A stretch of DNA of 64,000 nucleotides from NCBI GenBank assembly GCA_035288905.1, contig DATDYZ010000001.1:19172-83171 (forward strand), given 5' to 3'. The position numbers were made by a program, and so were the translations under genes. This DNA comes from Candidatus Anderseniibacteriota bacterium (GTDB lineage: Bacteria; Patescibacteriota; Andersenbacteria; UBA10190). A model generated the notes under the pieces. The model saw only the letters and a list, made by a program, of their open reading frames with translations. It did not search any database and had not been told where the DNA came from. Of the stretch, positions 12,348 to 63,862 are shown piece after piece. How positions within the stretch are numbered: the stretch's first letter is position 1; the number at the start of each line of letters is the position of its first letter.

Positions 12348-13106
12348 ATGGTTTCACTCAAAACTTCGCAAGAAATTGAACTCCTTGCAGAGGCGGGTGC
12401 GCTCTTAGGGGCGATACTTGATGTACTTACCAAAAAAGCAGCGGTAGGAGTGACGGGGACAGAATTAAATACCGTAGCTCACGATATGATGCAGCAAGCA
12501 GGCGCAATCCCTGTATTTTTAGGCTACGGCAAACCACCATATCCCGCAGCTATTTGTGTGTCCGTAAACGATCAAGTCGTTCATGGAATTCCAAATGATA
12601 TTCCATTTCAAGATGGGGATATAGTAAGCATAGACGCAGGACTTTCGCTGCATGGCTTAATTGTAGATAGCGCTCGAACTGTTGGCGTAGGCCATCTCAC
12701 TCCTATACAAAAAAAGCTTATGAACGTCACTAAGCAAGCGCTTGCAATTGGCATAGAACAAGCTCAAGTTGGAAACAGAACGGGAGACATTGGCTATGCC
12801 GTGCAATCATATGTCGAAAAAGAAGGATTTGAAGTTGTTCGTGCTTTAGTTGGCCATGGGGTAGGCCATGAATTGCACGAAGAACCACAAGTGCCCAACT
12901 TCGGATCAAAAGGGGCAGGTACGTTACTTACAGAGGGCATGGTACTAGCAATTGAGCCGATGGTAACGCAAGGCAGTCCCCATGTTACTACTTCTCCTGA
13001 TAAATGGAGTATTATTGCAGTCTCGGGAAAAGCATCTGCACACGAAGAACATACGATTGCAATTACAAAACAAGGGCCGAGGATCCTTACTATCGGAAAT
13101 GCATAA
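12348..13106 (+). CDS. map: Methionine aminopeptidase type I
   Basis: Pita-bread fold residues (D...D...H...E...E pattern: IDAG, HGVGHELHE, EPM). Trimmed from track ORF 12270. Confidence 0.92.
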   Translation: MVSLKTSQEIELLAEAGALLGAILDVLTKKAAVGVTGTELNTVAHDMMQQAGAIPVFLGYGKPPYPAAICVSVNDQVVHGIPNDIPFQDGDIVSIDAGLSLHGLIVDSARTVGVGHLTPIQKKLMNVTKQALAIGIEQAQVGNRTGDIGYAVQSYVEKEGFEVVRALVGHGVGHELHEEPQVPNFGSKGAGTLLTEGMVLAIEPMVTQGSPHVTTSPDKWSIIAVSGKASAHEEHTIAITKQGPRILTIGNA

Positions 13107-13632
13107 AATACCCACTAACGTCACCCCCTCCAGCTCCCCCTTGGTAAGGGGGAGAGGCGTCATTGCGTTAGACATCGGGAATCGTTATATTGGCGTTGCG
13201 GCTGCCGACCATGTGGATGCCTCGCTGGCGTATCGCTACACAACTATTGATCGTAAAACACAAGACGCACGAACAGTGCTTGCGGACATTATTACAAAAG
13301 AATCTATTGATACACTTGTGCTTGGTGTGCCGTATCATATACAAGATGGGAGTGAAACGCAGCAGACTAAAAAAACTCGTCAGTTTATAGCGTTACTAAA
13401 AAAAACATTTGACCCTGCTATTTCATACATTGAAGTTGATGAGACATTAACGTCTATGCAAGCAAAAGAAAATTTACAACACGAAGAATCGGATACGAAA
13501 GAAGAGCATGCAGAAGCCGCGCGTATTATGTTGCAAGAATTTCTTAGTTCCGCGACTGTCATGCCGGACTTGATCCGGCATCCAGGCGACGTGGATCCTT
13601 ACGTCAAGCCCGGGATGACAATGCTGTTATGA
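13099..13632 (+). CDS. ruvX: Putative pre-16S rRNA nuclease / Holliday junction resolvase-like RuvX (YqgF). Both termini are encoded by palindromic repeats.
   Basis: ALDIGNRYIGVAAAD, LVLGVP and the AEAARIMLQEFL end are YqgF-like. The first roughly 20 aa overlap repeat B and the last roughly 25 aa (MPDLIRHPGDVDPYVKPGMT) are encoded by repeat A, so the true start and stop are uncertain. Confidence 0.65.
   Translation: MHKIPTNVTPSSSPLVRGRGVIALDIGNRYIGVAAADHVDASLAYRYTTIDRKTQDARTVLADIITKESIDTLVLGVPYHIQDGSETQQTKKTRQFIALLKKTFDPAISYIEVDETLTSMQAKENLQHEESDTKEEHAEAARIMLQEFLSSATVMPDLIRHPGDVDPYVKPGMTMLL
13110..13172. repeat. Family B-variant palindromic repeat (CCCCCTCCAGCTCCCCC...GGGGGAGAGG)
   Basis: It shares its core with the insert inside hldD (59603..59688). 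Confidence 0.6.
13558..13620. repeat. Family A palindromic repeat copy
   Basis: GTCATGCCGGACTTGATCCGGCATCCAGGCGACGTGGATCC...CCCGGGATGACA. Confidence 0.8.
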
Positions 13633-26552: not shown

Positions 26553-28220
26553 ATGAAAAATGGGATTTGGAATATAGTTGCAGGGGATACTGTTATTGAG
26601 GATCAGGATGAATTGATTCGTGTGCTACTTCATAATCGCAACATCACCTCTGAGGGCAGCGAAGCTTTTTTTTCTTCTTCGTATATTCGTGATATTCATG
26701 ATCCATATGATTTGTATGATATGGAAAAAGCAGTGGAGCGCGTATATCGCGCAATAAAAAAGCAAGAAAGAATAGTTGTATATGGCGATTATGATGCAGA
26801 TGGTGTTACATCTACGGCAATTATGGTAGAAACACTTACTGCACTTGGTGCTCATGTATTTCCGTATTTGCCGCACAGGTACGATGATGGATACGGTTTA
26901 CATGGGAAAGTGTTGGAACAAATGCTCTCTGAATTTGAATTAGTAATCACTGTTGATTGTGGAGTGAGCAACCGGGAAGAAATAGCTATGCTACAAGCAG
27001 CTAAAAAAGACGTTATTATTGTTGACCATCACGAAATTCCTGAACAGCTTCCAGTTGCCTATGCAATTTTGCACCCACGGCATCCGAAAGGATTATATAG
27101 TTTTGGGCATCTGTGTGGGGCTGGTATGGCGTGGAAGTTTGCACAGGCATTGTTTCGCCATGCAGATTCTCTGTTTGCATCAGATCCTGATCGAGAAAAG
27201 TGGTTGCTTGATATTGTAATGATTGGGACTATTGCGGATGTAATGCCACTTGTTGGAGAAAATCGTGCCATTGTTCGATTTGGTAAAGATGTGTTACTAC
27301 GTACAAAGCATCCAGGAATTGCAGCACTACTGAAAGAATCTCGCATTAACGTATCAACGATAACTGCGGAAGATATTGCGTTTCGAATAGTGCCTTTGTT
27401 AAATGCCGCTGGGAGAATTGGCCACCCACAATCGGCTCTCAATGCGCTTATTGCGAAAACAAGCGATCAAGCAGATGCTGCAGTAAAAAAGCTAGTGCAG
27501 ATGAATAATGAGAGGCGGACACTGACAAAGAAAATGATGGATGAGGCGAATATCGAAATAGATCATAGTCTGCCGTTTGTGTTTATAGCTAATAGTAATT
27601 GGCCAGCAGGCATTGTTGGGCTTGTGGCTGGCCGCTTGGCTTCGCAGTTTGGAAAACCTGCATTTGTGGTAGGGGGGCATAGCTCACTATCACACTCTGT
27701 AGGGTCTGCACGGGGAGGCGGCAAAATAAACATTATGTCTGCGTTAGAAACAGTTCGCCACCATACTCTTAAGTTGGGCGGGCATAAGGCAGCAGCAGGG
27801 TTTTCTGTATTGCCCGAATATATAGATCGTATGAAACATGGGTTACGAGAGTATTTTGAATCTCAAGTATTAGAGCAGTCTCCGGTAGTTCATGAAGCCG
27901 ATGCTGTTATTTCTTCGCAACTTGTGTCGTGGGATACGGCGCGGGCACTTACAAAGTTTGAGCCGTTTGGTGAAGCGAACACAAGGCCATCTTTTGTTTT
28001 AAAGGGTTTGCGGCTTTTAGAGCGCAGAACGGTTGGGAAATCAAACGATCATATAAAGGCAAAACTTCTGGTAGGCGACCGTGAAATAGATGCAATAGGG
28101 TTTGGGCTCGGGGGGCAGGTACGTGTTCTTAAAAACACTGTAGACGTCTTGGCAAGTATAGGCGTAAATGAATTTCGTGGGCGAGAAAGCCTAGAGCTTC
28201 GTCTTACGGATATACGCTAA
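26553..28220 (+). CDS. recJ: Single-stranded-DNA-specific exonuclease RecJ (DHH/DHHA1)
   Basis: VYGDYDADGVTS, VDCG and DHH motifs. Confidence 0.87.
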   Translation: MKNGIWNIVAGDTVIEDQDELIRVLLHNRNITSEGSEAFFSSSYIRDIHDPYDLYDMEKAVERVYRAIKKQERIVVYGDYDADGVTSTAIMVETLTALGAHVFPYLPHRYDDGYGLHGKVLEQMLSEFELVITVDCGVSNREEIAMLQAAKKDVIIVDHHEIPEQLPVAYAILHPRHPKGLYSFGHLCGAGMAWKFAQALFRHADSLFASDPDREKWLLDIVMIGTIADVMPLVGENRAIVRFGKDVLLRTKHPGIAALLKESRINVSTITAEDIAFRIVPLLNAAGRIGHPQSALNALIAKTSDQADAAVKKLVQMNNERRTLTKKMMDEANIEIDHSLPFVFIANSNWPAGIVGLVAGRLASQFGKPAFVVGGHSSLSHSVGSARGGGKINIMSALETVRHHTLKLGGHKAAAGFSVLPEYIDRMKHGLREYFESQVLEQSPVVHEADAVISSQLVSWDTARALTKFEPFGEANTRPSFVLKGLRLLERRTVGKSNDHIKAKLLVGDREIDAIGFGLGGQVRVLKNTVDVLASIGVNEFRGRESLELRLTDIR

Positions 28221-28830
28221 TCATCATCAGGCCTGTCCCAATTGCAAGTCGTATTGCATGAGCGCGTGGTTCTTTTTGCACTACTGTAAAAAATTCAGTG
28301 AGTTTTTTGGCATGTGATAGGGTATTGTCCGCGATGATAATTCCATGCGGTGTAATTATTTGCATGGCATACTGAAAGTAGAGGGCATATTCTTCTTTGT
28401 TTGCATCGAGAAAAATGAAGTCGAAAGACGGAGGCTGTTTGTTTAGGTTGTCATTCCGGGCTTGCTTGCCGGCCATAGCCTTGGCGTCGGCTGGACCCGG
28501 AATCCACGCGCCTGGATCCCGGCTCGGGGGCCGGGATGACACTGCTAATTGCGACATGATTTCCACCGCATCTCCTTGTATCACCTCGATAGTTTCTGAT
28601 AATCCTTCTGTTGCAATATTTTCTTTTGCTAATTTCACTCGTTCGTCAAAAAATTCTATTGTCGTTATGTTTCCACCATAGAGAGATGCAACGTTTCCCA
28701 TAAGAATTGCTGAATATCCATTTGATGTACCAACCTCTAAAATATTCTTCGGTTTTTGTGCATGAATGAGAGCCTGGAGCACAGCGCCAGAATTTGGGTC
28801 AATATTCCAGTACTCATCTTGTGGTTTCAT
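28204..28830 (-). CDS. Class I SAM-dependent O-methyltransferase (CCoAOMT/YrrM-like) carrying an in-frame Family A repeat insertion
   Basis: ILEVGTSNGYS motif I and FDFIFLDANKEEY. Between them is VSSRPPSRDPGAWIPGPADAKAMAGKQARNDN, encoded by repeat A at 28450..28552. Confidence 0.8.
   Translation of the reverse strand: MKPQDEYWNIDPNSGAVLQALIHAQKPKNILEVGTSNGYSAILMGNVASLYGGNITTIEFFDERVKLAKENIATEGLSETIEVIQGDAVEIMSQLAVSSRPPSRDPGAWIPGPADAKAMAGKQARNDNLNKQPPSFDFIFLDANKEEYALYFQYAMQIITPHGIIIADNTLSHAKKLTEFFTVVQKEPRAHAIRLAIGTGLMMISVYP
28450..28552. repeat. Family A palindromic repeat (long form) inside the O-methyltransferase CDS
   Basis: GTCATTCCGGGC...CCGGCTCGGGGGCCGGGATGACAC. Confidence 0.8.
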
Positions 28831-30030: not shown

Positions 30031-30444
30031 ATGAAACGAGCGACGTTATTCACAGACGGCGGGGCGAGGGGTAACCCGGGTCCCGCCGCAATCGGTTTTG
30101 TGCTTACTGGTATTGGAAGCGCGCCTATTTTATATAAAGAATATATTGGGAAAGGCACGAACAACCAGGCAGAGTATCGTGCGTTATTAGCGGGTATTAC
30201 TCGTGCAAAAAAAGAGGGAGTAAAAGATTTGTTGTGCTATTTAGATAGCGAATTAGTGGTAAAGCAGGTGCGAGGAGAATACAGAGTTAAAAATGAAGAG
30301 CTAAAACTTTTGCTTACAGAAATAAAAAAACTACTACCCGTTTTTGATTCTATAACATTCCAACACGTTCCGCGCGCTAAAAACGCTATTGCGGATAAGC
30401 TGGTGAATGAGGCGTTGGACTCCAATTTTGCAGATGGACTATAA
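30031..30444 (+). CDS. rnhA: Ribonuclease HI
   Basis: FTDGGARGNPGPAA, NNQAEYRAL and the DSELVVKQ catalytic DEDD pattern. Confidence 0.9.
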   Translation: MKRATLFTDGGARGNPGPAAIGFVLTGIGSAPILYKEYIGKGTNNQAEYRALLAGITRAKKEGVKDLLCYLDSELVVKQVRGEYRVKNEELKLLLTEIKKLLPVFDSITFQHVPRAKNAIADKLVNEALDSNFADGL

Positions 30445-30782
30445 GCCGGATTCTGTTAAAGGCAATCATCTGTCTTGTTCTGCTATCGCTAGCAGAATCT
30501 TTGCCCTCTACCTGCCCCGTTATTCACGAAGCGACTTGAGGTTGCACTCGGTGGGGTTTGCACCCTCGCCGTATTACTACGGCGCGGCGTGGGCTCTTAC
30601 CCCACGATTTCACCATTGCTAATAAAAGCTGTTTGTTTCTGTTGCGCTCTTCGCCCTGCAAGCAGGGTCCCTAGGCTTGCGCCTGGCAGACGTTATCTGC
30701 CACTGTTTTCTTGAGTGTCCGGACTTTCCTCTCAGGCCCTTCGATTTCTCTCAGGGTAAAGCGATTGCCCATCCATCTGCGT
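30425..30782 (-). ncRNA. rnpB: RNase P RNA (bacterial type), antisense to the last about 20 nt of rnhA
   Basis: The minus strand reads GAGGAAAGUCCGGAC (P4 5' strand), GGUAAGAGCCCAC, and ACAGAAUCCGGCUUAUAG near the 3' end. The P1 helix GCAGAUGGA / UCCAUCUGC defines the ends. Confidence 0.75.
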
Positions 30783-36269: not shown

Positions 36270-36295
36270 TTATTCCAAGGCAAAGCCTTGGAATT
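36270..36295. repeat. REP-C palindrome TTCCAAGGCAAAGCCTTGGAA (inverted orientation relative to the two other copies)
   Basis: Perfect hairpin. Confidence 0.8.
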
Positions 36296-37035: not shown

Positions 37036-37701
37036 ATGAGTTATCGGCATGTGGGCTTTGCACCAGGTGAGATATATCACATATTCACTCGTGGCGTTGA
37101 GAAAAGAAAGATCTTTCTCTATGATGCTGATCGAATCCGTTTTCTTTCGCTCCTTGTGCATTGTTTACCACAAGGTCCAATCCAAAGTTTTTCTGTCGCG
37201 CAAAAACTCAAGCGAAAAACTGAGATTACCGCTTCTGGCGAAGGGCTAGTAGATATTCTCTGTTACTGCCTTATGAATAATCATATTCACCTGCTCCTGA
37301 AAGAAAATGTCGAAAAAGGTATTTCTATATACATGCAACGACTGCTCACTAGCTACGCTATGTATTTTAACAGAAGATCTGAGCGTTCAGGATCCTTATT
37401 TGTAAATCCGTTTAAGGCGGTTGTAGTTGATGCTGACGATCAATTCCTGCACGTCACTCGATATATTCATCTAAATCCGTTTGTTGCGCATCTGGTTGAA
37501 GACCCCTTTGGATATATTTGGTCTTCTTTACATGAATACACAGCTGCTTCACAAGAAAGTAAAATTTGTCACCCTGAATTACTCCGAGGAATAATGGGAC
37601 AACAGGAGTATCACCGTTTTGTGCTAGATCATGCCGACTATTCGCAGTCGCTTGTAGATAATTATCACCTTCTTATCGACATTGATGAAGAAGTGTCATA
37701 A
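37036..37701 (+). CDS. IS200/IS605-like HuH Y1 transposase (REP-associated tyrosine transposase, RAYT-like)
   Basis: HuH motif NNHIHLLL and the conserved tyrosine region TRYIHLNP. Flanked by REP-C copies. Confidence 0.8.
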   Translation: MSYRHVGFAPGEIYHIFTRGVEKRKIFLYDADRIRFLSLLVHCLPQGPIQSFSVAQKLKRKTEITASGEGLVDILCYCLMNNHIHLLLKENVEKGISIYMQRLLTSYAMYFNRRSERSGSLFVNPFKAVVVDADDQFLHVTRYIHLNPFVAHLVEDPFGYIWSSLHEYTAASQESKICHPELLRGIMGQQEYHRFVLDHADYSQSLVDNYHLLIDIDEEVS

Positions 37702-43814: not shown

Positions 43815-43847
43815 GGAATCATTCCGACACCTGGTGTCGGAATCTTG
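43815..43847. repeat. REP-D palindrome TTCCGACACCTGGTGTCGGAA
   Basis: Perfect hairpin. Confidence 0.8.
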
Positions 43848-43863
43848 TGATAGAATATTTACT

Positions 43864-44523
43864 ATGGGGTATCGAATAAATGGGTTTGAGCGGGGCGGTG
43901 TATACCACATATTTACGCGCGGTGTGGAGAAGAGGGAAATTTTTATGGATCATTCCGATCGTGTACGGTTTATCTCGCAAATGATTCATTGCTTGCCCGA
44001 TGAGCCTATTCTGAATTTTTCGCATGCACAAAAACTAAAACGAAAGTTGATAATAACCAGCGAAGGGGAGGGGTTAGCGGATATTCTTTGTTATTGCTTA
44101 ATGAATAATCATGTTCATTTTTTGCTCCGAGAAAATGTTGATGGTGGTATTTCGCGCTATATGCAACGGCTGCTCAATAGCTTCGCTCGGTATTTTAATG
44201 TTAAATACGAGCGCACTGGGGCGTTATTTGCGGGTCCGTTTCGGTCTGTTCCTGTGGTAAGTGATGATCAGCTTTTGCACGTAAGTAGGTATATTCATCT
44301 TAATCCTCATGCTGCGCATATAGTAAAGGATGTCTTCGCATATCCCTGGTCCTCGTTACGTGCATACTTAAACGACGAAGATTCGAAACTTTATTGCCAC
44401 GCTGACTTTCTTGCGTCATTAATGGATAAAAAAGAATATAAAAAATTCGTTTTCGATCAAGTGAGTTACGAACAATCCTTAGCTGCTTTTCCTGAACTTC
44501 TTTTAGATGATGACTATACTTAA
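43864..44523 (+). CDS. HuH Y1 transposase (RAYT-like), second paralog
   Basis: VYHIFTRGVEKREIF, NNHVHFLL and SRYIHLNPH. Trimmed from track ORF 43834, which starts in the REP. Confidence 0.8.
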   Translation: MGYRINGFERGGVYHIFTRGVEKREIFMDHSDRVRFISQMIHCLPDEPILNFSHAQKLKRKLIITSEGEGLADILCYCLMNNHVHFLLRENVDGGISRYMQRLLNSFARYFNVKYERTGALFAGPFRSVPVVSDDQLLHVSRYIHLNPHAAHIVKDVFAYPWSSLRAYLNDEDSKLYCHADFLASLMDKKEYKKFVFDQVSYEQSLAAFPELLLDDDYT

Positions 44524-44570
44524 TTCCGACACCTGGTGTCGGAATAAGTTCCCTGGTGTCGGAATAAGTT
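44521..44570. repeat. REP-D palindrome plus tandem half-copy
   Basis: TTCCGACACCTGGTGTCGGAATAAGTTCCCTGGTGTCGGAATAAGTT. Confidence 0.75.
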
Positions 44571-44572
44571 CT

Positions 44573-44865
44573 TTTCTGGCCCGTTTCGTGCTGTAGCTGT
44601 TGTACGTGATGAGCAATTTCTTCACGTAAGTAGGTATATTCACTTGAATCCATATGCGGCCCATATGACAAAGGATCCGCTTACATATAAATGGTCTTCT
44701 CTTGGCGAGTACTTTTTAGATGAAAGCAATAAAACAGCTTCTTGCCACACGAACTTTCTATTATCGTTAATAAGCTCTAAAGAATACAGAAGTTTTGTTG
44801 CAGACTACGCAGAGTATGCTCAGTCTCTCGCAAGCTACCCAGAATTGCTTATAGACGATGAATAA
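44573..44865 (+). pseudogene. C-terminal fragment of a third RAYT paralog (lacks the HuH N-terminal half)
   Basis: It translates to FSGPFRAVAVVRDEQFLHVSRYIHLNPYAAHM..., which parallels residues about 125-229 of the upstream transposase. There is no N-terminal domain. Confidence 0.65.
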
Positions 44866-46079: not shown

Positions 46080-46123
46080 AAGATTGAAATAATTAGAAAA
46101 CCGTGGTATTTTCATGGAATTGT

Positions 46124-47938
46124 ATGGAAATACGCAATTTTTGTATTATCGCGCATATTGATCATGGAAAGAGCACACTGGCAGACCGGATGCTCGAGTT
46201 AACGCATACCGTCGAAATGAGAGATATGCAGGCGCAGCTACTAGACTCTATGGAGCTGGAGCGAGAAAAAGGAATAACCATTAAGCTTCAACCAGTACGC
46301 ATGGAGCATAAAGGCTTTGTATTAAATTTAATAGATACTCCCGGGCATGTAGATTTCCAGTACGAAGTATCAAGAAGTCTGAAAGCAGTTGAAGGGGCTA
46401 TTTTACTTGTAGATGCTACGCAAGGTGTGCAAGCACAGACGGTTTCTAATTTATATTTTGCACTCGAAAAAAATCTGGAAATAATTCCTGTTATTAATAA
46501 AATAGACTTACCAGCTGCAGACGTTGAGGGCGTATCTCAAGAAATTATTAATCTTTTGGGTGCAAAAAAAGAAGATATACTTCATATATCTGCGAAGACG
46601 GGACAGGGGGTTCCGGAATTATTGGATGCAGTGATTGCGCGGGTGCCGGCGGCCACGCGCCCCTCACCCCCTGCCACGGCAGGGCCCTCTCCCAGAACGG
46701 GAGAGGGGAGCGAAAACCTGCGGGCGCTTATATTTGATTCGGTGTACGACGACTACAAGGGTGTGGTTGCATATGTGCGGGTTATGGAAGGAAGCGTTTC
46801 GCAAGGCGATGCGATTACGTTTTTAGGGACAGATGTTGATGATAGGGTAGTTGAAGTGGGCGTATTTAAACCACAATTTACTTCGCGTGAAAAAATTGGA
46901 GCGGGAGAAATTGGATATATTGCAACTGGCTTAAAAAATATTCGACAGGCTCGCGTGGGCGATACAATTACAAAAACAGTAGAAAAACATGAAGTGGAGC
47001 AACTCCCCGGCTTTGCAATTCCTCAACCGAAAGTCTTTGCTGGATTATACCCTGTAGATGGAAGCGACTTCCCTGTATTGCGCGAAGCAATGAGCCGACT
47101 GCAACTCAATGATTCTAGTTTAACTGCTCATATGGAGCGAAGCCATGCACTCGGGCAAGGTTTTCGATGTGGGTTTTTAGGAATGCTCCATTTAGAAATT
47201 GTGCAAGAGAGGCTGCGAAGAGAATTCGACGTAGAGTTGGTAGTCACGACTCCGAGCGTGCTCTACCACGTGGTGTTAACCTCCGGCGAGAAAAAAGATA
47301 TTCATACACCAGATGCGTTTCCGGATCCGAGTTTTGTCACATCTATGGAAGAGCAATGGTGTAAGGCAGATATATTACTTCCTCAGAAGTATCTCGGAGC
47401 CGTATTTGAAGTTATGGCACAACATGAAGGGAATTTAATTTCGCAAGAAGTATTGGGAACAGACCGCATGCTATTGCATTATGAATTGCCACTTCGAGAA
47501 CTTGTTGTCGATTTGTATGATCAACTAAAATCTATAACAAGTGGATATGGTTCGTTAAGTTATGATGTGATTGGTTGGAGGTCGGCAGACGTGGTGAAGC
47601 TGACAATCTTAATGAATCATGAAGTTGCTGAAGCGTTGTCATTAATTATTCCACGTACCAAAGCAGAAGCAATCGGGCGCCGAGTAGTCGATAAGCTAAA
47701 GGATCTTGTGCCGCGACAACAATTCGCAGTGCCTATTCAAGCAGCAATCGGTGGCAAAGTTGTAGCTCGCGAGACGGTACCCGCGCTTCGAAAAGACGTG
47801 ACGGCAAAGCTGTATGGAGGAGACGTAACTCGAAAACGAAAACTCTTAGATAAGCAGAAAAAAGGAAAAAAACGCCTTTCCACGAAAGGGTCTATCAATT
47901 TACCCCCAGAAGCATATATTCAGTTGCTCAAAAGGTGA
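46124..47938 (+). CDS. lepA: Translation elongation factor 4 (LepA), carrying an in-frame Family B repeat insertion
   Basis: IIAHIDHGKSTLADR and DTPGHVDF G-motifs, and the C-terminal LepA domain. The extra segment ATRPSPPATAGPSPRTGEGSE lies before the conserved LRALIFDS. Confidence 0.92.
   Translation: MEIRNFCIIAHIDHGKSTLADRMLELTHTVEMRDMQAQLLDSMELEREKGITIKLQPVRMEHKGFVLNLIDTPGHVDFQYEVSRSLKAVEGAILLVDATQGVQAQTVSNLYFALEKNLEIIPVINKIDLPAADVEGVSQEIINLLGAKKEDILHISAKTGQGVPELLDAVIARVPAATRPSPPATAGPSPRTGEGSENLRALIFDSVYDDYKGVVAYVRVMEGSVSQGDAITFLGTDVDDRVVEVGVFKPQFTSREKIGAGEIGYIATGLKNIRQARVGDTITKTVEKHEVEQLPGFAIPQPKVFAGLYPVDGSDFPVLREAMSRLQLNDSSLTAHMERSHALGQGFRCGFLGMLHLEIVQERLRREFDVELVVTTPSVLYHVVLTSGEKKDIHTPDAFPDPSFVTSMEEQWCKADILLPQKYLGAVFEVMAQHEGNLISQEVLGTDRMLLHYELPLRELVVDLYDQLKSITSGYGSLSYDVIGWRSADVVKLTILMNHEVAEALSLIIPRTKAEAIGRRVVDKLKDLVPRQQFAVPIQAAIGGKVVARETVPALRKDVTAKLYGGDVTRKRKLLDKQKKGKKRLSTKGSINLPPEAYIQLLKR
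46659..46712. repeat. Family B-type palindrome (CCCTCTCCCAGAACGGGAGAGGGG with GC-rich flanks) inside the lepA CDS
   Basis: Seen directly. It sits in-frame. Confidence 0.7.
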
Positions 47939-55757: not shown

Positions 55758-55840
55758 CGTAGTTATACTAGTGTAGCAACTAGAAATTTGTTCGTTGTCA
55801 TTTTGAAGTTTCCGTAAAAAAATAGAGAGGGAAAAAAGTC

Positions 55841-56542
55841 ATGAGCCGAAAAATTAGGGGCATCGTGTTTGATTTGGAAGGAACAATCGTTTCAGTGGAA
55901 GAGTGCCATACGGGCGGGTTCTCAGCTGCTGCGCTTTCGTATGGCATTGAGATTACTCCCCAGGAACTTCTCGAAATACCAGGGTACGTCGGCGCGGGCG
56001 ACAAGAGGGCCATTGATATGATCCTCGAGAAATTCCGCCGAGCAGACGTTGACGCTGAGGAGTTTCGCATTCGAAAGATGGAGCGCTACAACGAGCTGCT
56101 GAACGTGGCAGACATTGCATTGCGACCAGGGTTCGCCGACTTCTGTTGCCAAGCGAGCAGGCATTGGCTTCAAATTGCTATTGCGTCATTGACCCCAAGA
56201 GTTCAGGCTAACCCTTTGATTAAGAGGATTGGGCTTGAGCAACTTGTTCCAATCGAAAGGATTGTCCTTCGTGAGGACGTCACAAATGTGAAGCCAAATC
56301 CGGAAGTATTTTTGGAGGCAGCAGCACGGATCAACGTTCATCCGCGGAGCGTACTTGTGTTCGGGGATTCGGTGCATGACATGACGGCAGCAGTTGCGGC
56401 CGGTTCCGTTCCTATCGGAATGCCGTGCAATTTCAGAGATCCATTCATCGGAGACTTACTGAAAGCCGGCGCCGTAGATGTTTTTAAAGATTGGCGAAGC
56501 ATCAGATTAGAGGGATTGCTCAAAATTGTTCAGGGTTTGTAA
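55841..56542 (+). CDS. HAD-IA family hydrolase (beta-phosphoglucomutase/phosphatase-like)
   Basis: Motif I VFDLEGTIV and motif IV FGDSVHDMTAA. Higher GC. Confidence 0.75.
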   Translation: MSRKIRGIVFDLEGTIVSVEECHTGGFSAAALSYGIEITPQELLEIPGYVGAGDKRAIDMILEKFRRADVDAEEFRIRKMERYNELLNVADIALRPGFADFCCQASRHWLQIAIASLTPRVQANPLIKRIGLEQLVPIERIVLREDVTNVKPNPEVFLEAAARINVHPRSVLVFGDSVHDMTAAVAAGSVPIGMPCNFRDPFIGDLLKAGAVDVFKDWRSIRLEGLLKIVQGL

Positions 56543-56568
56543 CAGCATTGCTGCAACTAACTCTCCTA

Positions 56569-56602
56569 AAGCCCCAACGTACATACGTTGTGGGCTTTTT
56601 TA
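56569..56602 (+). terminator. Rho-independent terminator AAGCCCCAACGT...ACGTTGTGGGCTT followed by TTTTT
   Basis: Seen directly. Confidence 0.55.
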
Positions 56603-56644
56603 TTGATCTTGCGAGGTATGAAAAAAGGCGGTACCGTTATTGAC

Positions 56645-57214
56645 ATGAAATATGAAAAATTATTTAAAGATCATACTCAAGAATTGCGAGAAACCATTGA
56701 TCGGTTGGATCAATACTACGAACAAGTTATAGAGGTTGCGAAGCAATTTAAAAAGGCATTTGATAGCGGAAATAAAATCTTAATTGCCGGTAATGGCGGA
56801 TCTGGCGCACAGGCGCTGCATTTATCAGATGAAATGGTGGGGCGGTATAGAAATGATAGGCAGGCGTATCCTGCAATATCGCTTACCGCAGATGGAGCGG
56901 TAATTACTTGTATTGGGAACGATTTTGGATACGACAATGTGTTCGGGAGGCAAGTCGCTGCCTTTGGACAACCAGGCGATATTTTTGTTGGCCTCACGAC
57001 TTCCGGAGCATCGGAAAATATTTTAAAAGCAGCAGCAGTCGCACGAGAGAGAGGAATGCTGATTATCGGATTTATGGGTGAAGGTGGAGTGTTTCAGGAG
57101 TTGTGTGATTTTGTGTTACAGGCGCCATCAAAGAAAAGCGCTGTTGTACAGGAAATGCATTTACACGCGATTCACTTGCTGTGTGAATTATTTGAAGAGC
57201 CAATATCAATTTAA
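56645..57214 (+). CDS. gmhA: Phosphoheptose isomerase (SIS domain)
   Basis: GNGGSGAQALHLSDE and TTSG. Trimmed from track ORF 56588. Confidence 0.85.
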   Translation: MKYEKLFKDHTQELRETIDRLDQYYEQVIEVAKQFKKAFDSGNKILIAGNGGSGAQALHLSDEMVGRYRNDRQAYPAISLTADGAVITCIGNDFGYDNVFGRQVAAFGQPGDIFVGLTTSGASENILKAAAVARERGMLIIGFMGEGGVFQELCDFVLQAPSKKSAVVQEMHLHAIHLLCELFEEPISI

Positions 57215-57224
57215 CAACTATTCT

Positions 57225-58217
57225 ATGAAACATATTTCACTAAAACGAGCGAAAGAAATTACCTCAAAGTTTAGCAGTCAAAAAGTTTTGGTCATTGGAG
57301 ATGCAATGATTGATCACTATGTGCTAGGGGTGGTACAGCGGGTGAACCCCGAAGCCCCTGTATCTCTGTTGAATGTGAAAGAAAAACGTGACATGAGCGG
57401 AGGTGCGGGTAATGCAGCGAAAAACGTTGCAACACTTGGTGCTGCCACTACCCTCCTTACGATTACCGGAGATGACCCGGCAGCATTTCGACTGAAGGAA
57501 ATTGCAGAAGCGGAACTGTATAAAGTGTACCCAATTCGAGATGGTTCTCGTCCAACTATTCAAAAGAGTAGGTATATGGCAAATCACCAACAACTGTTGC
57601 GGGTAGACGAAGAGGAAAAGCACCCGGTATCTCCTGAAATTGAAAAGCAAATAATAGCAGATATGGAGAAGTTGCAAGAAGGAATAACTGCGATTGTTGT
57701 TTCTGATTACGACAAGGGATTTATTACGCCCAATGTTGCTTCTGCTATTATTGCTATTGCTCATGATCGTTCTCTGCCGATTATTGCTGACTTGAAGGCG
57801 AATCACGTTCCGTTGTTTAAAGGAGTTACGGCTATTACTCCAAATCGAAAAGAAGCACATGAATTTCTTTCGCTTAATTGGCCAGATGAAAAAAAGCCAC
57901 CTGAATATTTAGCACAAGAACTTTCAAAGATGATGAAAAGCGATGTATTTGTAACGCTCGGAGATGAAGGTATTTACCTGCGGGATCGTGAAGGAGAAGA
58001 GTTCCATATTAATCCCGCGCGAAAAATTGAAGTGTTTGATGTGTCTGGGGCTGGCGATACGGTAGTTGCAACGTTAGCGTTATCGTATGCTTCGGGCGCT
58101 ACTGCATTTGAGGCTGGGGAATTAGCAAATGCAGCAGGTGCTGTTGTGGTAGGCAAGGTTGGAAGCGTTGCTCCTACTGTGGAAGAGATTTTAGAAATGG
58201 TTGAGTCTGAGGAATAG
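57225..58217 (+). CDS. hldA: D-glycero-beta-D-manno-heptose-7-phosphate kinase (stand-alone HldE kinase domain, PfkB family)
   Basis: VLVIGDAMIDHY, GGAGN and the C-terminal GAGDTVVA. Trimmed from track ORF 57078. Confidence 0.83.
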   Translation: MKHISLKRAKEITSKFSSQKVLVIGDAMIDHYVLGVVQRVNPEAPVSLLNVKEKRDMSGGAGNAAKNVATLGAATTLLTITGDDPAAFRLKEIAEAELYKVYPIRDGSRPTIQKSRYMANHQQLLRVDEEEKHPVSPEIEKQIIADMEKLQEGITAIVVSDYDKGFITPNVASAIIAIAHDRSLPIIADLKANHVPLFKGVTAITPNRKEAHEFLSLNWPDEKKPPEYLAQELSKMMKSDVFVTLGDEGIYLRDREGEEFHINPARKIEVFDVSGAGDTVVATLALSYASGATAFEAGELANAAGAVVVGKVGSVAPTVEEILEMVESEE

Positions 58218-58788
58218 TCCTTCTCGTATGCTTAAGCGCGTCATCTTTTTAGATCGCGATGGAACGCTGAACGTTGACCATGGATATGTGCACTCACGCG
58301 AACAGTGGGAGTGGGTGCCTGGTGCACTGGATGCATGTAAACAACTCCAAGATGCAGGGTATACGCTTGCAGTGATAACGAATCAATCCGGCATTGCCCA
58401 TGGCTTATATACAGAAGAAGCGATGCATGAGTTGCATCGATATATGAGATTGGAATTGGATCAGTATGGCGTGCATCTTGCGATGATTGCATTTTGTCCG
58501 CATGCTAGAAGCCAGACAGATTGCGATTGCAGAAAACCTCATATAGGGATGGCAAAACAAATTGAGGCAAAAATTGGTGAAATTGACTATGCAAATAGTT
58601 GGACAGTAGGTGATAAAGAAGCTGATTTGTTATTTGGCAAAACTGCAGGAACAAAAACGGCATTGATACGAAGTAAGTATTGGGAAGAAGGCAAACTAAC
58701 GGTACAACCTGATATGGTTGTTGATTCTCTGGAACAGGCGGCAGTTAGTATCACCTCTTCCCAATTGGGGAGAGGTCGCTCTGTATGA
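58201..58788 (+). CDS. gmhB: D,D-heptose 1,7-bisphosphate phosphatase
   Basis: IFLDRDGTLN and CPHARSQTDCDCRKP. The start could instead be the internal ATG at 58228. The C-terminal roughly 10 aa run into repeat B. Confidence 0.83.
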   Translation: MSLRNSPSRMLKRVIFLDRDGTLNVDHGYVHSREQWEWVPGALDACKQLQDAGYTLAVITNQSGIAHGLYTEEAMHELHRYMRLELDQYGVHLAMIAFCPHARSQTDCDCRKPHIGMAKQIEAKIGEIDYANSWTVGDKEADLLFGKTAGTKTALIRSKYWEEGKLTVQPDMVVDSLEQAAVSITSSQLGRGRSV

Positions 58789-58850
58789 GCGAAGCGAATT
58801 AAAGAGCGGGAGAGGGCAACCCAAAGCGCAACGACAGCCCTCCAGCCTTC
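58754..58850. repeat. Family B composite repeat (CCTCTTCCCAATTGGGGAGAGG ... GGGAGAGGGCAAC..CAACGACAGCCCTCC)
   Basis: Seen directly. Confidence 0.7.
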
Positions 58851-58980
58851 GCTGAAGCTATGGCCGGCAAAGCACCCTTTTACCCCACTGCGTCCCGCGT
58901 AGCTCGCAAGCGAAGTGGGATATGGGTAGAGGGGAACTATGCACTTCCCTATATTTTATTTTTTATATACTATTATATCT

Positions 58981-59493
58981 ATGGAACTTCCACATCATTG
59001 GAGAAAAGAGAAAATTTTAACCCTGGAAGAAGCAGCAAAAAAGTCTGCGGAACTTCGAGCACAAGGAAAGACAATCGTAAGCCATAACGGGTCTTATGAC
59101 CTACTTCACGGCGGGCATTTAGACATGCTTGAAGAAGCAAAGCAACAGGGCGATATTCTTATTGTTGGAATAAACACGGACGTTTCTATCCGTGATGCAA
59201 AGGGCCCTACTCGTCCTATTATTGGTGTAGAAAATCGTGCGGCTATGCTTGCTGCACTTATTTGCGTCGATTATGTAACAGTGATGGATGGGGCGTACAA
59301 CGAGGAGCCACAAGGTTCGTTTATACCTGCTATTAAGCCGCACATTCATGTGAATGGTGAAGAATACGGGCCAGAAGAAAAGTGGATTGAATACGGTGCA
59401 ATGCAAGCATGTGGAGCGAAGGGATACTCGGTAGGACGCAGACCAAACCTTTCAACCTCAGACATCATCAAGAAGATTCAATCGGAAGTATGA
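58981..59493 (+). CDS. hldC: D-beta-D-heptose-1-phosphate adenylyltransferase (stand-alone HldE C-terminal domain)
   Basis: Cytidylyltransferase motif SHNGSYDLLHGGH. Trimmed from track ORF 58939. Confidence 0.83.
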   Translation: MELPHHWRKEKILTLEEAAKKSAELRAQGKTIVSHNGSYDLLHGGHLDMLEEAKQQGDILIVGINTDVSIRDAKGPTRPIIGVENRAAMLAALICVDYVTVMDGAYNEEPQGSFIPAIKPHIHVNGEEYGPEEKWIEYGAMQACGAKGYSVGRRPNLSTSDIIKKIQSEV

Positions 59494-60551
59494 TTGTCGT
59501 AACTGGCGCAGCAGGGTTCATTGGAAGTGCTACGGTGTGGGCACTTAATCAAAAAGGCCGAGAAGATATTATTATTGTGGATGAGATAATTGATAACCCG
59601 ATTCTCCCACCCCCTCCAGCTCCCCCTCGGGCAGGGGGAGAGAACGCGGCGGACGCTTCGCCGAGTAGCGACTCGGCTCGCGAAAAGGAACACAATATCG
59701 GGCATTTGAAGTATGATCAAATGATGGGTATTGCCGATTTTCGAAAGCAATTACTATCAGGAGAACTGGATAGCTTAGGTATAGAAGCAATTATTCATTT
59801 GGGTGCATGCAGCGCAACTACAGAAACAAATTGGGACTATTTGCTGGATAACAACGTGGAGTATACCAAAGATATGATCCGCTGGTGCCAAACGAATAAC
59901 GCTCGGTGCGTGTATGCATCCAGTGCGGCAACATATGGTGATGGAGAGGTAGGGTATGACGATAATCACGACCTATTTGACTCGCTGGTACCGATGAACC
60001 TCTACGGCAAATCAAAGCTGTTAGTTGATATATGGGCGCGAGATGGCGGCTATTTAGATGGGGCAGTTGGTCTTCGATACTTTAACGTATTTGGTCCGAA
60101 TGAATGGCATAAAGGCTCTATGATGAGCGTAGTTGCAAAAAAGTACCCTGAAATTGCCTCTGGCAAACCCATTACGTTGTTTAAGTCGTATGAAAAGGAC
60201 TATGGTGATGGTGAACAAAAACGAGACTTCGTGTATGTAAAAGATGCAGTGAGAGCCACTCTCTTTTTTATGGATAACATGCAACATAATGGAGTGTATA
60301 ACGTGGGTATGGGAATTGCCCGTTCCTGGCTTGATGTTGCCCGCGCCATGTTTGCAGCATCTAGTATTCCAGAAAAGGTAGAGTTTATCGAGATGCCAGA
60401 TAATCTCAAAAACCAATATCAATACTTTACGCAGGCAAATATTAAAAAGTTAGAAGCAACAGGATTTGATATGAGTCAAAATTATTCTTTAGAGAAAGCA
60501 GTGACAGAATATATCCAAGAACATTTAGCTCCTCATAAACACTTAGTATGA
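59490..60551 (+). CDS. hldD: ADP-L-glycero-D-manno-heptose 6-epimerase, carrying an in-frame Family B repeat insertion
   Basis: [22 protein letters not shown] and the YxxxK catalytic pattern. The ATGA start overlaps the hldC stop. Trimmed from track ORF 59409. The extra segment [29 protein letters not shown] lies in the first variable loop. Confidence 0.88.
59603..59688. repeat. Family B-variant repeat inside the hldD CDS
   Basis: CCCCCTCCAGCTCCCCCTCGGGCAGGGGGAGAG plus the CGAGTAGCGACTCG palindrome. Confidence 0.7.
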
Positions 60552-61423
60552 AAGGTATTATTTTAGCTGGTGGATCAGGGACAAGATTGTATCCATTAAC
60601 ACGAGCGGTGAGTAAACAATTGCTTCCAGTATACGATAAGCCAATGGTGTATTATCCGCTTTCTACACTGATGCTTTCAGGCATTACGGAGATTTTATTT
60701 ATTTCAACCCCGAAAGATTTGCCTATTTTTGAATCGTTGTTTGGTGATGGATCTAATTTGGGGATGAAATTTAGCTACAAAGTGCAAGAAAAACCAAATG
60801 GTTTACCAGAAGCATTTATATTGGGCGAGGATTTTATCGGGGACGATAGTGTTGCGATGATGCTTGGCGATAATATTTTATATGGAAGTGGGCTCTCGGG
60901 TATTTTAAAGGATGCAAAAGAAAAAGTTGAAACAGACGGCGGGCACATGCTGTTTGGGTATCATGTACCTGATCCAGAGCGTTCTGGAGTGATAGAGTTT
61001 GATGCTGCTGAAACCGTTGTTTCTATTGAAGAAAAACCAAAGAATCCGAAATCGCCTTATGCAATTTTAGGGTTATACTTTTTCGATAACAAGGTTGTTG
61101 AAGTAGCAAAGGGGCTTACGCCGTCTGCCCGTGGAGAACTAGAAATGGTCGATTTGCATAATCACTATTTAGCTGCAGGCAATTTATACGCTACAAAATT
61201 ACCTCGAGGGGTAGCCTGGCTAGATGCGGGGTTGCACTCTTCACTATTGCAGGCGGGTAATTTTGTTCAGATTGTTGAACAGCGCCAAGGATTAAAAATA
61301 GGGTGCATTGAAGAAGTCGCATACCGAATGGGGTATATTACGGCGCAGCAGCTTACTGAAATAGCGCAGGGGTTACTAAAAAGTGGATATGGACAGTATT
61401 TGTTGGATGTCGCTAATGAATAG
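60548..61423 (+). CDS. rfbA: Glucose-1-phosphate thymidylyltransferase
   Basis: [17 protein letters not shown]. Confidence 0.92.
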
Positions 61424-61429
61424 CAGCGA

Positions 61430-61541
61430 TCCCCTCTCCCCAATTGGGGAGAGGGTTAGGGAGAGGGCAACCCACGACGCAACGACAGCCCTCACCCCTG
61501 CCTGCGGGCTAGGCCCTCTCCCCCATATGGGTAGAGGGGAA
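61430..61541. repeat. Family B composite repeat (two palindromes flanking GGGCAAC..ACGACAGCCCTCACCCC)
   Basis: Seen directly. Confidence 0.75.
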
Positions 61542-61588
61542 CTAACCATTATTGACAATAACAATATAATAGAACATAATATAGCCAT

Positions 61589-62574: not shown

Positions 62575-63723
62575 ATGAATTTATTGCTGATAAATAACGA
62601 ATTTCCTCCTATTGGCGGAGGCGGCTCTACGGTTACAAAATATGCAATCCGCTATCTTGTTCAAATGGGACATACCGTAACCCTTATTACGTCTAGGTAC
62701 GGTAATTTGCCTCATCGAGAAGTTATTGATGGTGCTGCGGTAATTCGTATCCCTGCACTTCGAAGATATAAAGATTATAGTTCTGTGTTTGAGCTTGTGA
62801 TTTTTGGTATATCTGCACTTCTGTATTCTTTTTTCTTTACCCTCAAGTATAAAACTGATTTTACATTTGCTTTTTTTGCCGTGCCCGCAGGTTGGGTAGC
62901 GTGGATACTTTCGTATGTACGAGGTATTCCGTATGGAGTGTATTTTGGAGGGTCGGATATTCCAGGCGCAAACCCGTCTCGTTTTCGTCAGATATATCCG
63001 TTTATTACACCTCTTTTAAAAACGATTTGGAAGCGTGCGTCGTTTCGGTCAGTATGTTCAAAAGATTTACAAGATATTGCACGCCGTCTTGATCCGGCAT
63101 CCGAGTTTCACTATATTCCTAATGGCGTAGAGACAGATAGATTTATGCCAATAGACCGACCAGAAAACCCTAAAGTAAAAATAGTTTTTATTGGTAGGCT
63201 TATTCCACGCAAGGGATTTCATCGAGTGGTACGCGCGCTTCCTAAAGTTCTTACGCTAACACATGTCCCTTTTGAAATTGAAGTGGTGGGTACGGGTGCT
63301 CATCGTGCAGAGTTGGACGACCTTGCAGAGCAATTAGGCGTAAGCCAATTTATTTCCTATATTGGCATGGTGCCATATGACCAATTAGAAAAGTCATACC
63401 AGTATGCAGATATATTTGTGCTGACGTCACTTTCTGAGGGTATGCCTTCTGTAATACTAGAGGCAATGGGTGCTGGGCTTCCTATTATTGCCAGCAATGT
63501 AGGGGGTAATAACGAAATTGTGAAAGAAGGCGAAAATGGATTCCTCATTATGGGTGACGATATTGATTTATTAGCAGATAAAATGGCAGTATTAATTAAC
63601 GACAGTGCTCTGCGCAAACAGATGGGAGCTAAAAGTCGGGAATATGCGATGCAGTACGATTGGAAACATATTATGAACAGGTATAATGAACTGATAATGC
63701 AATATGGCAAAAAACAGCAATAA
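62575..63723 (+). CDS. GT4 family glycosyltransferase
   Basis: EGMPSVILEAMGAGLPIIASNVGG. Confidence 0.85.
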   Translation: MNLLLINNEFPPIGGGGSTVTKYAIRYLVQMGHTVTLITSRYGNLPHREVIDGAAVIRIPALRRYKDYSSVFELVIFGISALLYSFFFTLKYKTDFTFAFFAVPAGWVAWILSYVRGIPYGVYFGGSDIPGANPSRFRQIYPFITPLLKTIWKRASFRSVCSKDLQDIARRLDPASEFHYIPNGVETDRFMPIDRPENPKVKIVFIGRLIPRKGFHRVVRALPKVLTLTHVPFEIEVVGTGAHRAELDDLAEQLGVSQFISYIGMVPYDQLEKSYQYADIFVLTSLSEGMPSVILEAMGAGLPIIASNVGGNNEIVKEGENGFLIMGDDIDLLADKMAVLINDSALRKQMGAKSREYAMQYDWKHIMNRYNELIMQYGKKQQ

Positions 63724-63735
63724 AAGCGTAGACGT

Positions 63736-63848
63736 TCCCTTCTCCCCAATTGGGGAGAAGGTGCCTCGCCAGAGCGGGCGGATGAGGGCAGGACACAACG
63801 CTACAACAGCCCTCACCCCAACCCTCTCCCCCCATGGGGAGAGGGGGT
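63736..63848. repeat. Family B composite repeat
   Basis: CCCTTCTCCCCAATTGGGGAGAAGG ... ACAACAGCCCTCACCCC ... CCCTCTCCCCCCATGGGGAGAGGGGG. Confidence 0.75.
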
Positions 63849-63862
63849 CTCGTGATTACTTT

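Follow-up and report, generated by a model that had tools for sequence, protein, structure and literature searches.

The hldD gene in a 64,000-nucleotide stretch of a Candidatus Anderseniibacteriota genome (contig DATDYZ010000001.1; hereafter the window, meaning the whole stretch) carries an in-frame insert of approximately 84 nt, or 28 amino acids net (59603..59686, + strand, bounds +/-3 nt). This insert is very probably a layered remnant of small, GC-rich, palindromic, non-coding repeats that landed in hldD and persisted because they keep the frame, bring no stop codon with them and occupy a solvent-exposed, tolerant loop. Repeats of this kind would resemble repetitive extragenic palindromic (REP) sequences and their doublets (REPINs), or Rickettsia palindromic elements (RPEs). 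The extent of the insert was set by protein and DNA alignments with insert-bearing and insert-free orthologs, by GC content and by the predicted local distance difference test (pLDDT) scores of a structure model. An initial annotation of this DNA had proposed that the extra HldD segment was repeat-derived DNA read in frame, and the ortholog alignment, the copies of the repeat core found elsewhere and the open frame all bore this out. The alignment to HldD orthologs confirmed that the segment was both extra and in frame, and it also revealed that the segment is a composite and not a single repeat.

The insert extends the beta2-alpha2 loop of HldD

The hldD coding sequence (59490..60551, + strand) specifies an ADP-glyceromanno-heptose 6-epimerase (AGME) of 353 amino acids, as judged from the open reading frame (ORF), the TIGR02197 model and matches to the E. 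coli structures 1eq2 and 2x6t. Its ATG start codon at 59490 overlaps the TGA stop codon of the upstream adenylyltransferase gene as ATGA, and the frame stays open to the stop at 60551. The TIGR02197 equivalog score was 340.9 bits against a cut-off of 274.6, and the match to E. coli HldD (1eq2/2x6t) had an E value of ~5e-55 at 37% identity. The alignment to 1eq2 fell into two blocks, with HldD residues 1-35 matching chain residues 1-35 and HldD residues 72-342 matching chain residues 44-303. The beta2-alpha2 loop comprised 36 residues in the window protein versus 8 in the E. coli enzyme (36-43), an excess of ~28 residues. Most of the 120 homologs were 324-331 amino acids long, with 325-328 the usual length among orthologs; they came from Patescibacteria, those bearing a name being Candidatus Andersenbacteria, and a metagenome scan with HldD returned relatives of 40-47% identity only. 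The GxxGxxG and YxxxK motifs were invariant in the ortholog alignment, and the catalytic S..YxxxK was kept in the window protein. The window protein and E. coli HldD are alike in enzyme family, fold, Rossmann GxxGxxG and S..YxxxK, and unlike in the 28 extra loop residues of the former.

An AlphaFold2 model of the window HldD was built on 30 orthologs. Its mean pLDDT was 87.7 and fell below 50 solely at residues 35-58, which sit between the beta2 strand (27-30) and the helix formed by residues 60-70. Compared with the solved AGME structures 2x6t and 1eq2, the model gave a template modelling score, TM(target), of 0.91 and a root-mean-square deviation of 2.2-2.3 A. Because the low-pLDDT residues lie between beta2 and helix 60-70, the extra segment is modelled as a disordered excursion of the beta2-alpha2 loop, directly before the EKEHN motif that is invariant in the clade. 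As predicted, this surface-loop placement is compatible with the HldD fold. The initial annotation had described ~27 extra residues after the first beta-alpha unit; the length was close to the 28 residues found, and the position is one element further along, after beta1-alpha1-beta2.

The insert is a composite of two modules

The GC content was 0.71 at 59600-59679, compared with 0.35-0.50 in the flanks and 0.438 over the whole window. Since three independent metagenome assemblies (L001-L003), with 97.6-98.8% identity to the window, contained the same insert without a single base change, an assembly artefact could be excluded, and related inserts were present in four more distant HldD orthologs. 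We aligned the DNA of the insert-bearing orthologs P0001 (a 98% relative of the window HldD), P0002, P0003, P0007 and P0016 with that of the insert-free ortholog P0004. In this nucleotide alignment a right module was common to all insert-bearing orthologs, while the left module varied. The right module, which reads GACGCTTCGCCGAGTAGCGACTCGGCTCGCG in the window, was shared by the insert-bearing orthologs at 72-80% identity to the window. The left module in P0002, P0003, P0007 and P0016 was a C-type repeat, CCAGCCTTCGCC..GGCTACGGCGGGC; repeats related to it occur in other genes as well as at 58846, within the intergenic mosaic of the window. The window and its 98% relatives had in its place CTCCCACCCCCTCCAGCTCCCCCTCGGGCAGGGGGAGAG followed by AACGCGGCGG, and the left part measured 57 nt against 27 nt in P0002 (net +30 nt).

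The change from one module to the other falls in the spacer AACGCGGCGGACGCTTC (59643..59659, + strand), which was characterized by the flanks of copies of the left element in other loci and by identity with P0002. The first bases of the spacer (AGAACG..) also follow the left-element hairpin in L024, L045, L093 and L126. From 59651 on, where identity with P0002 starts, the spacer belongs to the older module. This identity continues for 45 nt (59651..59695, + strand), the longest identical run between two hldD genes that are 76% identical overall; the second-longest run is 24 nt.

The layered anatomy points to a putative order of events. An ancestral allele would first have gained a C-type repeat (CCAGCCTTCGCC..GGCTACGGCGGGC) together with the right-module hairpin, between the 'VDxxDH' and 'EKEHN' motifs. 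Once the P0002 lineage had split off, the C-type part would have been overwritten in the window lineage by a 39-nt solo element of a second type, which we call B. Ordinary read-through would translate the element into a disordered loop of 28 residues (LPPPPAPP...). We infer that transposition, or gene conversion templated by another copy, brought in the B element, that the events took this order and that the result was neutral. Translation is likewise probable, because the ortholog inserts are all multiples of three and stop-free, which bypassing or splicing would not need. The insert encodes LPPPPAPP at 59609-59620. Four consecutive prolines are a ribosome-stalling motif that depends on EF-P, and the four prolines coded by the element could slow hldD translation.

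The left module belongs to a dispersed repeat family

The core of the solo B element is the 39-nt sequence CTCCCACCCCCTCCAGCTCCCCCTCGGGCAGGGGGAGAG (59604..59642, + strand), defined by identical copies elsewhere and by a 39-nt difference between filled and empty pheT sites. It contains a hairpin (59620..59640, + strand), read from the sequence and recovered by folding, in which the arms CTCCCCCT (59620-59627) and AGGGGGAG (59633-59640) form an 8-bp stem around the 5-nt loop CGGGC. This hairpin is predicted to fold as RNA and as DNA, on both strands. The core amounts to 13 codons and is stop-free in all six frames; it has 77% GC, so freedom from stops is not surprising per se.

Copies identical over 39 of 39 positions were found in the Andersenbacteria-like genomes L019 (two, in pheT), L056 (in uvrC) and L126 (in a glycosyltransferase gene). 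Copies matching at 38 of 39 positions occurred in pheT of L108 and, in the opposite orientation, in lepA of L006, a genome whose hldD site is empty. At the orthologous site in the B5 domain of pheT (L019 945-2786 and L108 4868-6748), the B element was identical at 46 of 47 nt in genes that are 66.9% identical, making it the most conserved stretch of that pheT. Within the window, the 27-mer CCAGCTCCCCCTCGGGCAGGGGGAGAG was found with at most 3 mismatches solely at 59616 and 13130, against 0.00 occurrences expected from shuffles. The two window copies match over 35 nt at 91% identity (13122-13156 versus 59608-59642). The left 39 nt of the insert is therefore a member of a dispersed repeat family by its copies in other genes, in other genomes and in the window itself. 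The initial annotation had assigned the whole insert to one variant of this family. That assignment held for the left 39-45 nt; the palindrome CGAGTAGCGACTCG, which it had included, is single-copy and belongs to the older module. The same variant had been reported at the 5' end of ruvX over 13110..13172, where it is indeed present, although it spans only 13122-13156.

Intragenic copies of the B element were common. When the window's two are counted along with those at Patescibacteria-group loci among the matches listed, 13 of 39 B-type copies were placed 40 or more codons inside an ORF 200 or more codons long. Pfam domains flanked the intragenic copies on both sides, including the B5 domain of PheT, class-I aminoacyl-tRNA synthetases (aaRS), UvrA, a TrmA-like methyltransferase, FtsK and Wzy_C, and the copies used five of the six reading frames. 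In addition to singlets of 39 nt, many copies took the form of inverted doublets of 81-87 nt, as in L024, L030, L045, L118 and Gallionella. In these doublets the second hairpin is inverted relative to the first across a spacer of 10-15 nt, and 27-29 amino acids are coded (e.g. TPSSSPLVRGR...PLLTKEGLGEV).

Covariation in the right-module hairpin

The right module contains a second hairpin (hairpin 2, 59660..59677, + strand, 18 nt), in which the arms GCCGAGT (59660-59666) and ACTCGGC (59671-59677) form a 7-bp stem around the loop AGCG, and which holds CGAGTAGCGACTCG. Searches with blastn-short, in which a composite of the C-type repeat and hairpin 2 was also sought, found no second copy of hairpin 2 in the window, nor in ~1 Mb of related DNA beyond the orthologous sites. 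Across the orthologs the stem read GCCGAGT/ACTCGGC, GCTGCAT/ATGCAGC or GCCTGAA/TTCAGGC. Five of the seven pairs had changed on both sides, and over the four distinct sequences 28 of 28 cells were Watson-Crick pairs with no G-U pair; in a control in which the partner strand was slid by 1-3 columns, 21-39% of the cells were paired. The peptide coded at hairpin 2 shifted alongside the stem (SPSSDSA, SLHGDAA and APESVQA). Template switching that 'corrects' palindromes is a known mutational process. The pattern is suggestive, in that the covariation may reflect selection on a DNA or RNA hairpin or such correction of a palindrome. Folding z-scores against GC-matched shuffles were -0.58 for the whole insert and ~-2 for hairpin 2; these values did not discriminate, and energy was not counted as evidence. 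A search of Rfam at gathering and at permissive thresholds returned nothing credible at 59400-59900, and window-wide it returned only RNase P and a sub-threshold chance match to a long non-coding RNA.

These observations bear on a further explanation, which would supplement rather than exclude a remnant of inserted repeats and which we consider possible though unlikely. Here the unit that is selected, or that maintains itself, would be the hairpin, as DNA or as RNA, and the peptide would be a by-product. Candidate roles for such a unit include a target for a recombinase or transposase, an mRNA structure tuning translation or stability of the heptose operon, and a substrate for intrastrand template switching and overwriting by gene conversion. 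The uniformly Watson-Crick covariation in the face of a changing peptide argues for this explanation, as do the coverage of hairpin 2 by the 45-nt run, the near-identity of the pheT B element in much more diverged genes, and the use of five of six frames by intragenic copies with no peptide favoured. On the other side, the covariation comes from only four distinct hairpin-2 sequences, the folding energies are unremarkable relative to GC-matched shuffles and Rfam gave no match. The near-identity of the B elements could equally well be explained by recent independent insertions at hot spots, as turnover in lepA suggests.

The same sites are occupied by different elements

The beta2-alpha2 loop of HldD carried an insert in 11 of 121 sequences, and at least three unrelated elements were represented. 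Eight of the 11 inserts were the related composite, P0060 carried a C-type element alone (ACCCCAGCCTTCGCCCCCGCCAGCCGGCGGGGCTCCGGCGGGCGA, 15 aa), and P0064 and P0070 carried another imperfect palindrome (CCCGTAAAATCGCCTGGCGGTGATCACGGGGCA). The inserts measured +17, +18, +21, +23 and +28 aa, and all of them were multiples of three and stop-free. The insert-free ortholog P0004 is 82% identical to the window HldD and keeps the ancestral 'DHD' codons, so precise excision in P0004 is unlikely. In a neighbor-joining (NJ) tree of HldD, P0004 fell inside the insert-bearing window clade, and P0007 and P0016 fell elsewhere. A single ancient insertion common to P0007/P0016 and the window clade was rejected as unproven, since the tree interleaves insert-free lineages with insert-bearing ones and since P0004 has kept the 'DHD' codons.

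A comparable situation was found in the linker that joins the G domain of LepA to domain II. In the window this linker holds an A-type repeat (46655-46712, in lepA 46103..47938). The same linker holds a B-type element in reverse orientation in L006 (4700-4750; protein 94% identical) and a shorter remnant in L008 (~2050-2100; protein 81% identical). The comparison indicates rapid turnover at a fixed site. Together with the apparent overwrite in hldD, it suggests that colonized sites are repeatedly re-colonized. We infer that this happens either because only such loops survive selection or because existing palindromes attract, or recombine with, new copies.

Candidate mechanisms of mobility

At the second pheT site, a filled and an empty genome differed by exactly 39 nt, and no target duplication was visible, although divergence of the flanks limits the power of this comparison. 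The singlet B element also contains no terminal inverted repeat (TIR) of 15-30 bp, so that on both counts the classical traits of a MITE, or miniature inverted-repeat transposable element, are missing. A junction without target duplication is compatible with single-strand transposition by an HUH/Y1 enzyme and is no demonstration of it. The head of the B element has no GTAG; CGTC brackets the ruvX copy and is absent from the hldD copy, and in the family the stem is preceded by CCTC, a variant allowed by Di Nocera et al. (PMC3733652).

The window contains two full Y1 (IS200-like, PF01797) transposase genes (43834-44523 and 37036-37701) and a fragment of a third (44569-44862). Their identity to a Y1 gene that adjoins lepA in L008 is 58-70%. 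Each has on either side perfect, AT-richer palindromes of the form ATTCCGACACCTGGTGTCGGAAT or TTATTCCAAGGCTTTGCCTTGGAAT, located at 43821, 44523, 44543, 44871, 45728 and 53063 and at 36270, 36982 and 37707. Genes and palindromes together form an arrangement like that of REP sequences and REP-associated tyrosine transposases (RAYTs), with a hairpin family unlike the GC-rich repeats. Because no target duplication was visible and Y1 genes are present, our leading guess for the mobilizer of B, albeit a rather doubtful one, is a Y1 (HUH) transposase that works on single-stranded hairpins. The window's own Y1 transposases were set aside as the mobilizer except as a weak guess, since the palindrome that flanks them is different.

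Weighing the origin of the insert

Several observations weigh against the view that the insert is a remnant of inserted repeats. Transposition was not observed, and hldD displays neither a target-site duplication nor a clean junction. Judged from the alignment, the exchange of 57 nt for 27 nt relative to P0002 looks like a replacement and not like a simple insertion. No multi-copy family could be found for hairpin 2 in ~1 Mb of related DNA. The interleaving of insert-free lineages in the NJ tree could stem from several gains at one site or from a gain with subsequent loss. The pheT element, identical at 46 of 47 nt in genes of 67% identity, and the covariation of hairpin 2 fit poorly with a neutral translated spacer. 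Finally, no Y1 gene flanked by B elements, as expected of a cognate RAYT, was found within the 64-kb window.

If the insert were an adaptive, lineage-specific protein loop, for example a Pro-rich segment that binds a partner or gates the cofactor near the NADP site, then its location would be favorable. In the short-chain dehydrogenase/reductase fold, the beta2-alpha2 loop contacts the adenosine ribose and 2'-phosphate of the cofactor, and the insert lies in this loop directly before the invariant EKEHN. It is also unchanged in the 98% relatives from three samples. However, the peptide is not conserved among the orthologs that share the insert and is probably disordered, unrelated proteins contain the same DNA element read in other frames and orientations, and most orthologs, including the 82%-identical P0004, do without an insert. 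We therefore regard an adaptive loop as very unlikely.

Two further explanations are less credible still. Skipping of the insert by translational bypassing, or its removal as an intron- or intein-like element, is highly improbable: a GC-rich palindromic insert in an AT-richer gene does resemble the mitochondrial 'byp' elements, which are GC-rich and reportedly undergo translational bypassing, but the ortholog inserts keep to stop-free multiples of three, which bypassing would not need, no signature of a self-splicing intron, an intein or another described RNA element was detected at the insert (by Rfam and by its size), and 28 amino acids are far too short for an intein. A pseudogene in decay, or an insert created by faulty assembly across a repeat, is equally hard to credit, since, although repeats can yield chimeric metagenome joins and GC-rich foreign DNA in a gene is typical of disruption, the 353-codon frame is open, the TIGR02197 score is above the cut-off, the GxxGxxG and YxxxK motifs are kept, the operon context is conserved, the same sequence was recovered in three independent assemblies and related inserts are found in four more distant orthologs.

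Other repeat-derived coding sequence in the window

The initial annotation had counted at least four genes with repeat-derived coding sequence in the 64 kb, a number that our analysis raised to at least six. Such sequence was present in lepA, an O-methyltransferase gene, hldD, both ends of ruvX and the C-terminus of gmhB, and possibly forms the N-termini of two further ORFs. The second window copy of the B element (13122..13156, + strand; 35 nt at 91% identity) lies at the 5' end of ruvX (13099..13632). Upstream of the catalytic ALDIG motif the frame offers just two start codons, ATG at 13099 and TTG at 13141, the latter in the hairpin loop, so that the repeat supplies the 5' end of ruvX whichever start is used. 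The window RuvX has 177 amino acids; its orthologs have 134-135 and start with MKxLALDIG. It matches an NCBI protein labelled 'MAG TPA Candidatus Andersenbacteria' at 100% identity. A further repeat lies at the 3' end of ruvX (13555-13612), where the C-terminus and stop codon fall inside the element. A similar repeat-coded tail was seen in the orthologs P0122, P0123 and P0125, and most orthologs end ~40 residues earlier. The C-terminus and stop codon of gmhB also lie inside a repeat element (58749-58777). The O-methyltransferase gene (28207-28830, - strand) carries an in-frame insert of 96 nt (28450-28545), which splits the PF01596 match in two. It combines a member of the GTCATxCCGGG..CCCGGxATGAC family with a C-type module and encodes ..SRPPSRDPGAWIPGPADAKAMAGKQARND..

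In the heptose/rhamnose cluster we also observed intergenic repeat mosaics at 58789-58938, 61424-61588 and 63734-63850, which are reminiscent of clusters of bacterial interspersed mosaic elements. Their modules include an A hairpin (CCCTCTCCCCAATTGGGGAGAGGG), GCCCTCACCCC, GAGCGAAGCGAAT and C-type units, and the block at 63734-63850 may form the N-terminus of an epimerase ORF that starts at 63704. A class A RNase P RNA (30426-30780, - strand, 211.5 bits) accounts for the GC-rich islands at 30544-30596 and 30643-30693.

The genes near hldD are gmhB, a HldE-domain-II-like adenylyltransferase gene and rfbA. At the hldD loci of relatives, genes for a SIS-domain (GmhA-like) protein and a PfkB kinase also lie upstream, and the operon context is conserved. 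From this set of neighbors, hldD belongs to a complete nucleotide-heptose operon. The region ~55800-61423 encodes a complete ADP-heptose pathway in a bacterium of the candidate phyla radiation (CPR), adjoining rfbA and glycosyltransferase genes. The pathway consists of a SIS isomerase, GmhB, HldD and, as separate proteins, a PfkB kinase and an adenylyltransferase, the functions of HldE being split over two genes.

Relation to known palindromic repeats

RPEs were described by Ogata et al. (2000), as summarized in PMC10969869 and PMC3733652, and are inserted in frame in dozens of Rickettsia metabolic genes (PMC10969869). Like the repeats described here, they are short palindromic repeats that occur both between genes and in frame within numerous housekeeping genes unrelated to one another, among them uvr and aaRS-type genes. 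Both add peptide that loops of the host protein tolerate, both inhabit small, reduced genomes, and neither has a known transposase dedicated to it. The two differ in host (Alphaproteobacteria versus Patescibacteria) and in size (~100-150 bp for RPE-1 versus a 39-nt singlet and an 81-87-nt doublet here). The elements described here also differ in being GC-rich within an AT-richer genome, in the layered arrangement in hldD and in a hairpin motif that recurs across many phyla. Homology of the B element to RPE-1 to RPE-10 is unlikely, given that size and host set them apart. In its behavior the hldD insert is RPE-like: its left 39 nt belong to a dispersed family, the frame is kept, it lies in a loop and insert-free orthologs exist.

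Intragenic REPs, including copies in uvrA and uvrB, were catalogued by Di Nocera et al. (2013), with 20-30 amino acids coded when dimeric (PMC3733652), and the architecture of REPINs and their RAYT transposases was described by Bertels and Rainey (2011; PMC3116915). The B family shares with these systems hairpins of 20-40 nt, found singly or as inverted doublets around a spacer, the REPIN corresponding to the doublets of 27-29 amino acids in relatives. Intragenic copies, and palindrome-flanked Y1-transposase genes in the same window, are further points of likeness. It differs in that the Y1/RAYT-like genes are flanked by the ATTCCGACACCTGGTGTCGGAAT family and not by B, and in its unusually large intragenic share. 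The intragenic MITEs of enterobacteria, or small mobile ORF-carrying sequences (Delihas 2007; PMC2759123), are likewise small non-autonomous repeats within genes that add new peptide segments; as described there, they are elements of 100-170 bp with TIRs, whereas the B element is a 39-nt hairpin with neither a TIR nor a target-duplication signature.

The hldD insert thus joins the known in-frame insertions of REP- and RPE-like repeats, as a CPR counterpart of the 'selfish DNA inside genes' of Rickettsia. In the literature searched, we found no paper describing repeat-derived coding insertions in CPR/Patescibacteria. Three observations go, provisionally, beyond the routine: the covariation of a hairpin in coding sequence, the near-identical copies across diverged genes, and a motif shared across phyla.

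A widely distributed hairpin motif

We scanned one genome per species for CCAGCTCCCCCT-N4-6-AGGGGGAG and obtained at least 119 loci (L009-L127, e.g. L010, L084, L032 and L053). The sequence CCCCCT, which was not part of the query, occurred in the six bases upstream in 98 of 127 cases among the matches listed. Carriers of the motif CCCCCTCCAGCTCCCCCT-loop-AGGGGGAGAG among these listed matches included Gallionellaceae, Bacteroidota (named genera Odoribacter and Butyricimonas), Gammaproteobacteria (Alcanivorax, Marinomonas and Cellvibrio), Planctomycetota, Chloroflexota (SAR202) and several classes of Patescibacteria. Gallionellaceae, again among the matches listed, had dozens of copies per genome, with doublets ending in GGGAGGGGT. 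Since three carriers are cultured isolates, the cross-phylum distribution is not a binning artefact. A few matches in Clostridia and Asticcacaulis were rejected as family members; they have no CCCCCT head, are followed by T-runs or lie in unrelated flanks, and look like chance, terminator-like hairpins. Searches of the literature with the motif strings, and for CPR together with palindromic insertions, turned up no published name or description of the motif family.

Implications

The same element lies inside pheT, uvrA, uvrC, ftsK, aaRS and methyltransferase genes of related genomes. Repeat-coded segments in CPR marker genes such as lepA, pheT and the aaRS genes affect protein lengths, alignments and phylogenies and should be masked. 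The repeats sometimes supply start codons and C-termini, as in ruvX and gmhB. Filled, empty and overwritten sites in close relatives provide a natural system for studying the movement of palindromes without a visible transposase, and for asking whether selection or mutation bias preserves the hairpins. It is conceivable, though on balance improbable, that the B hairpin represents a single, very widely distributed REP-like superfamily. In CPR bacteria this family would have taken the form of a 'coding-compatible' 39-nt unit that is stop-free in six frames, can enter genes at any phase and homes to or overwrites earlier palindromic inserts. Its hairpins would be kept at the nucleic-acid level inside coding sequence by compensatory evolution or gene conversion. 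If this is true, the essential proteins of reduced genomes would keep gaining new disordered loops from such an element.

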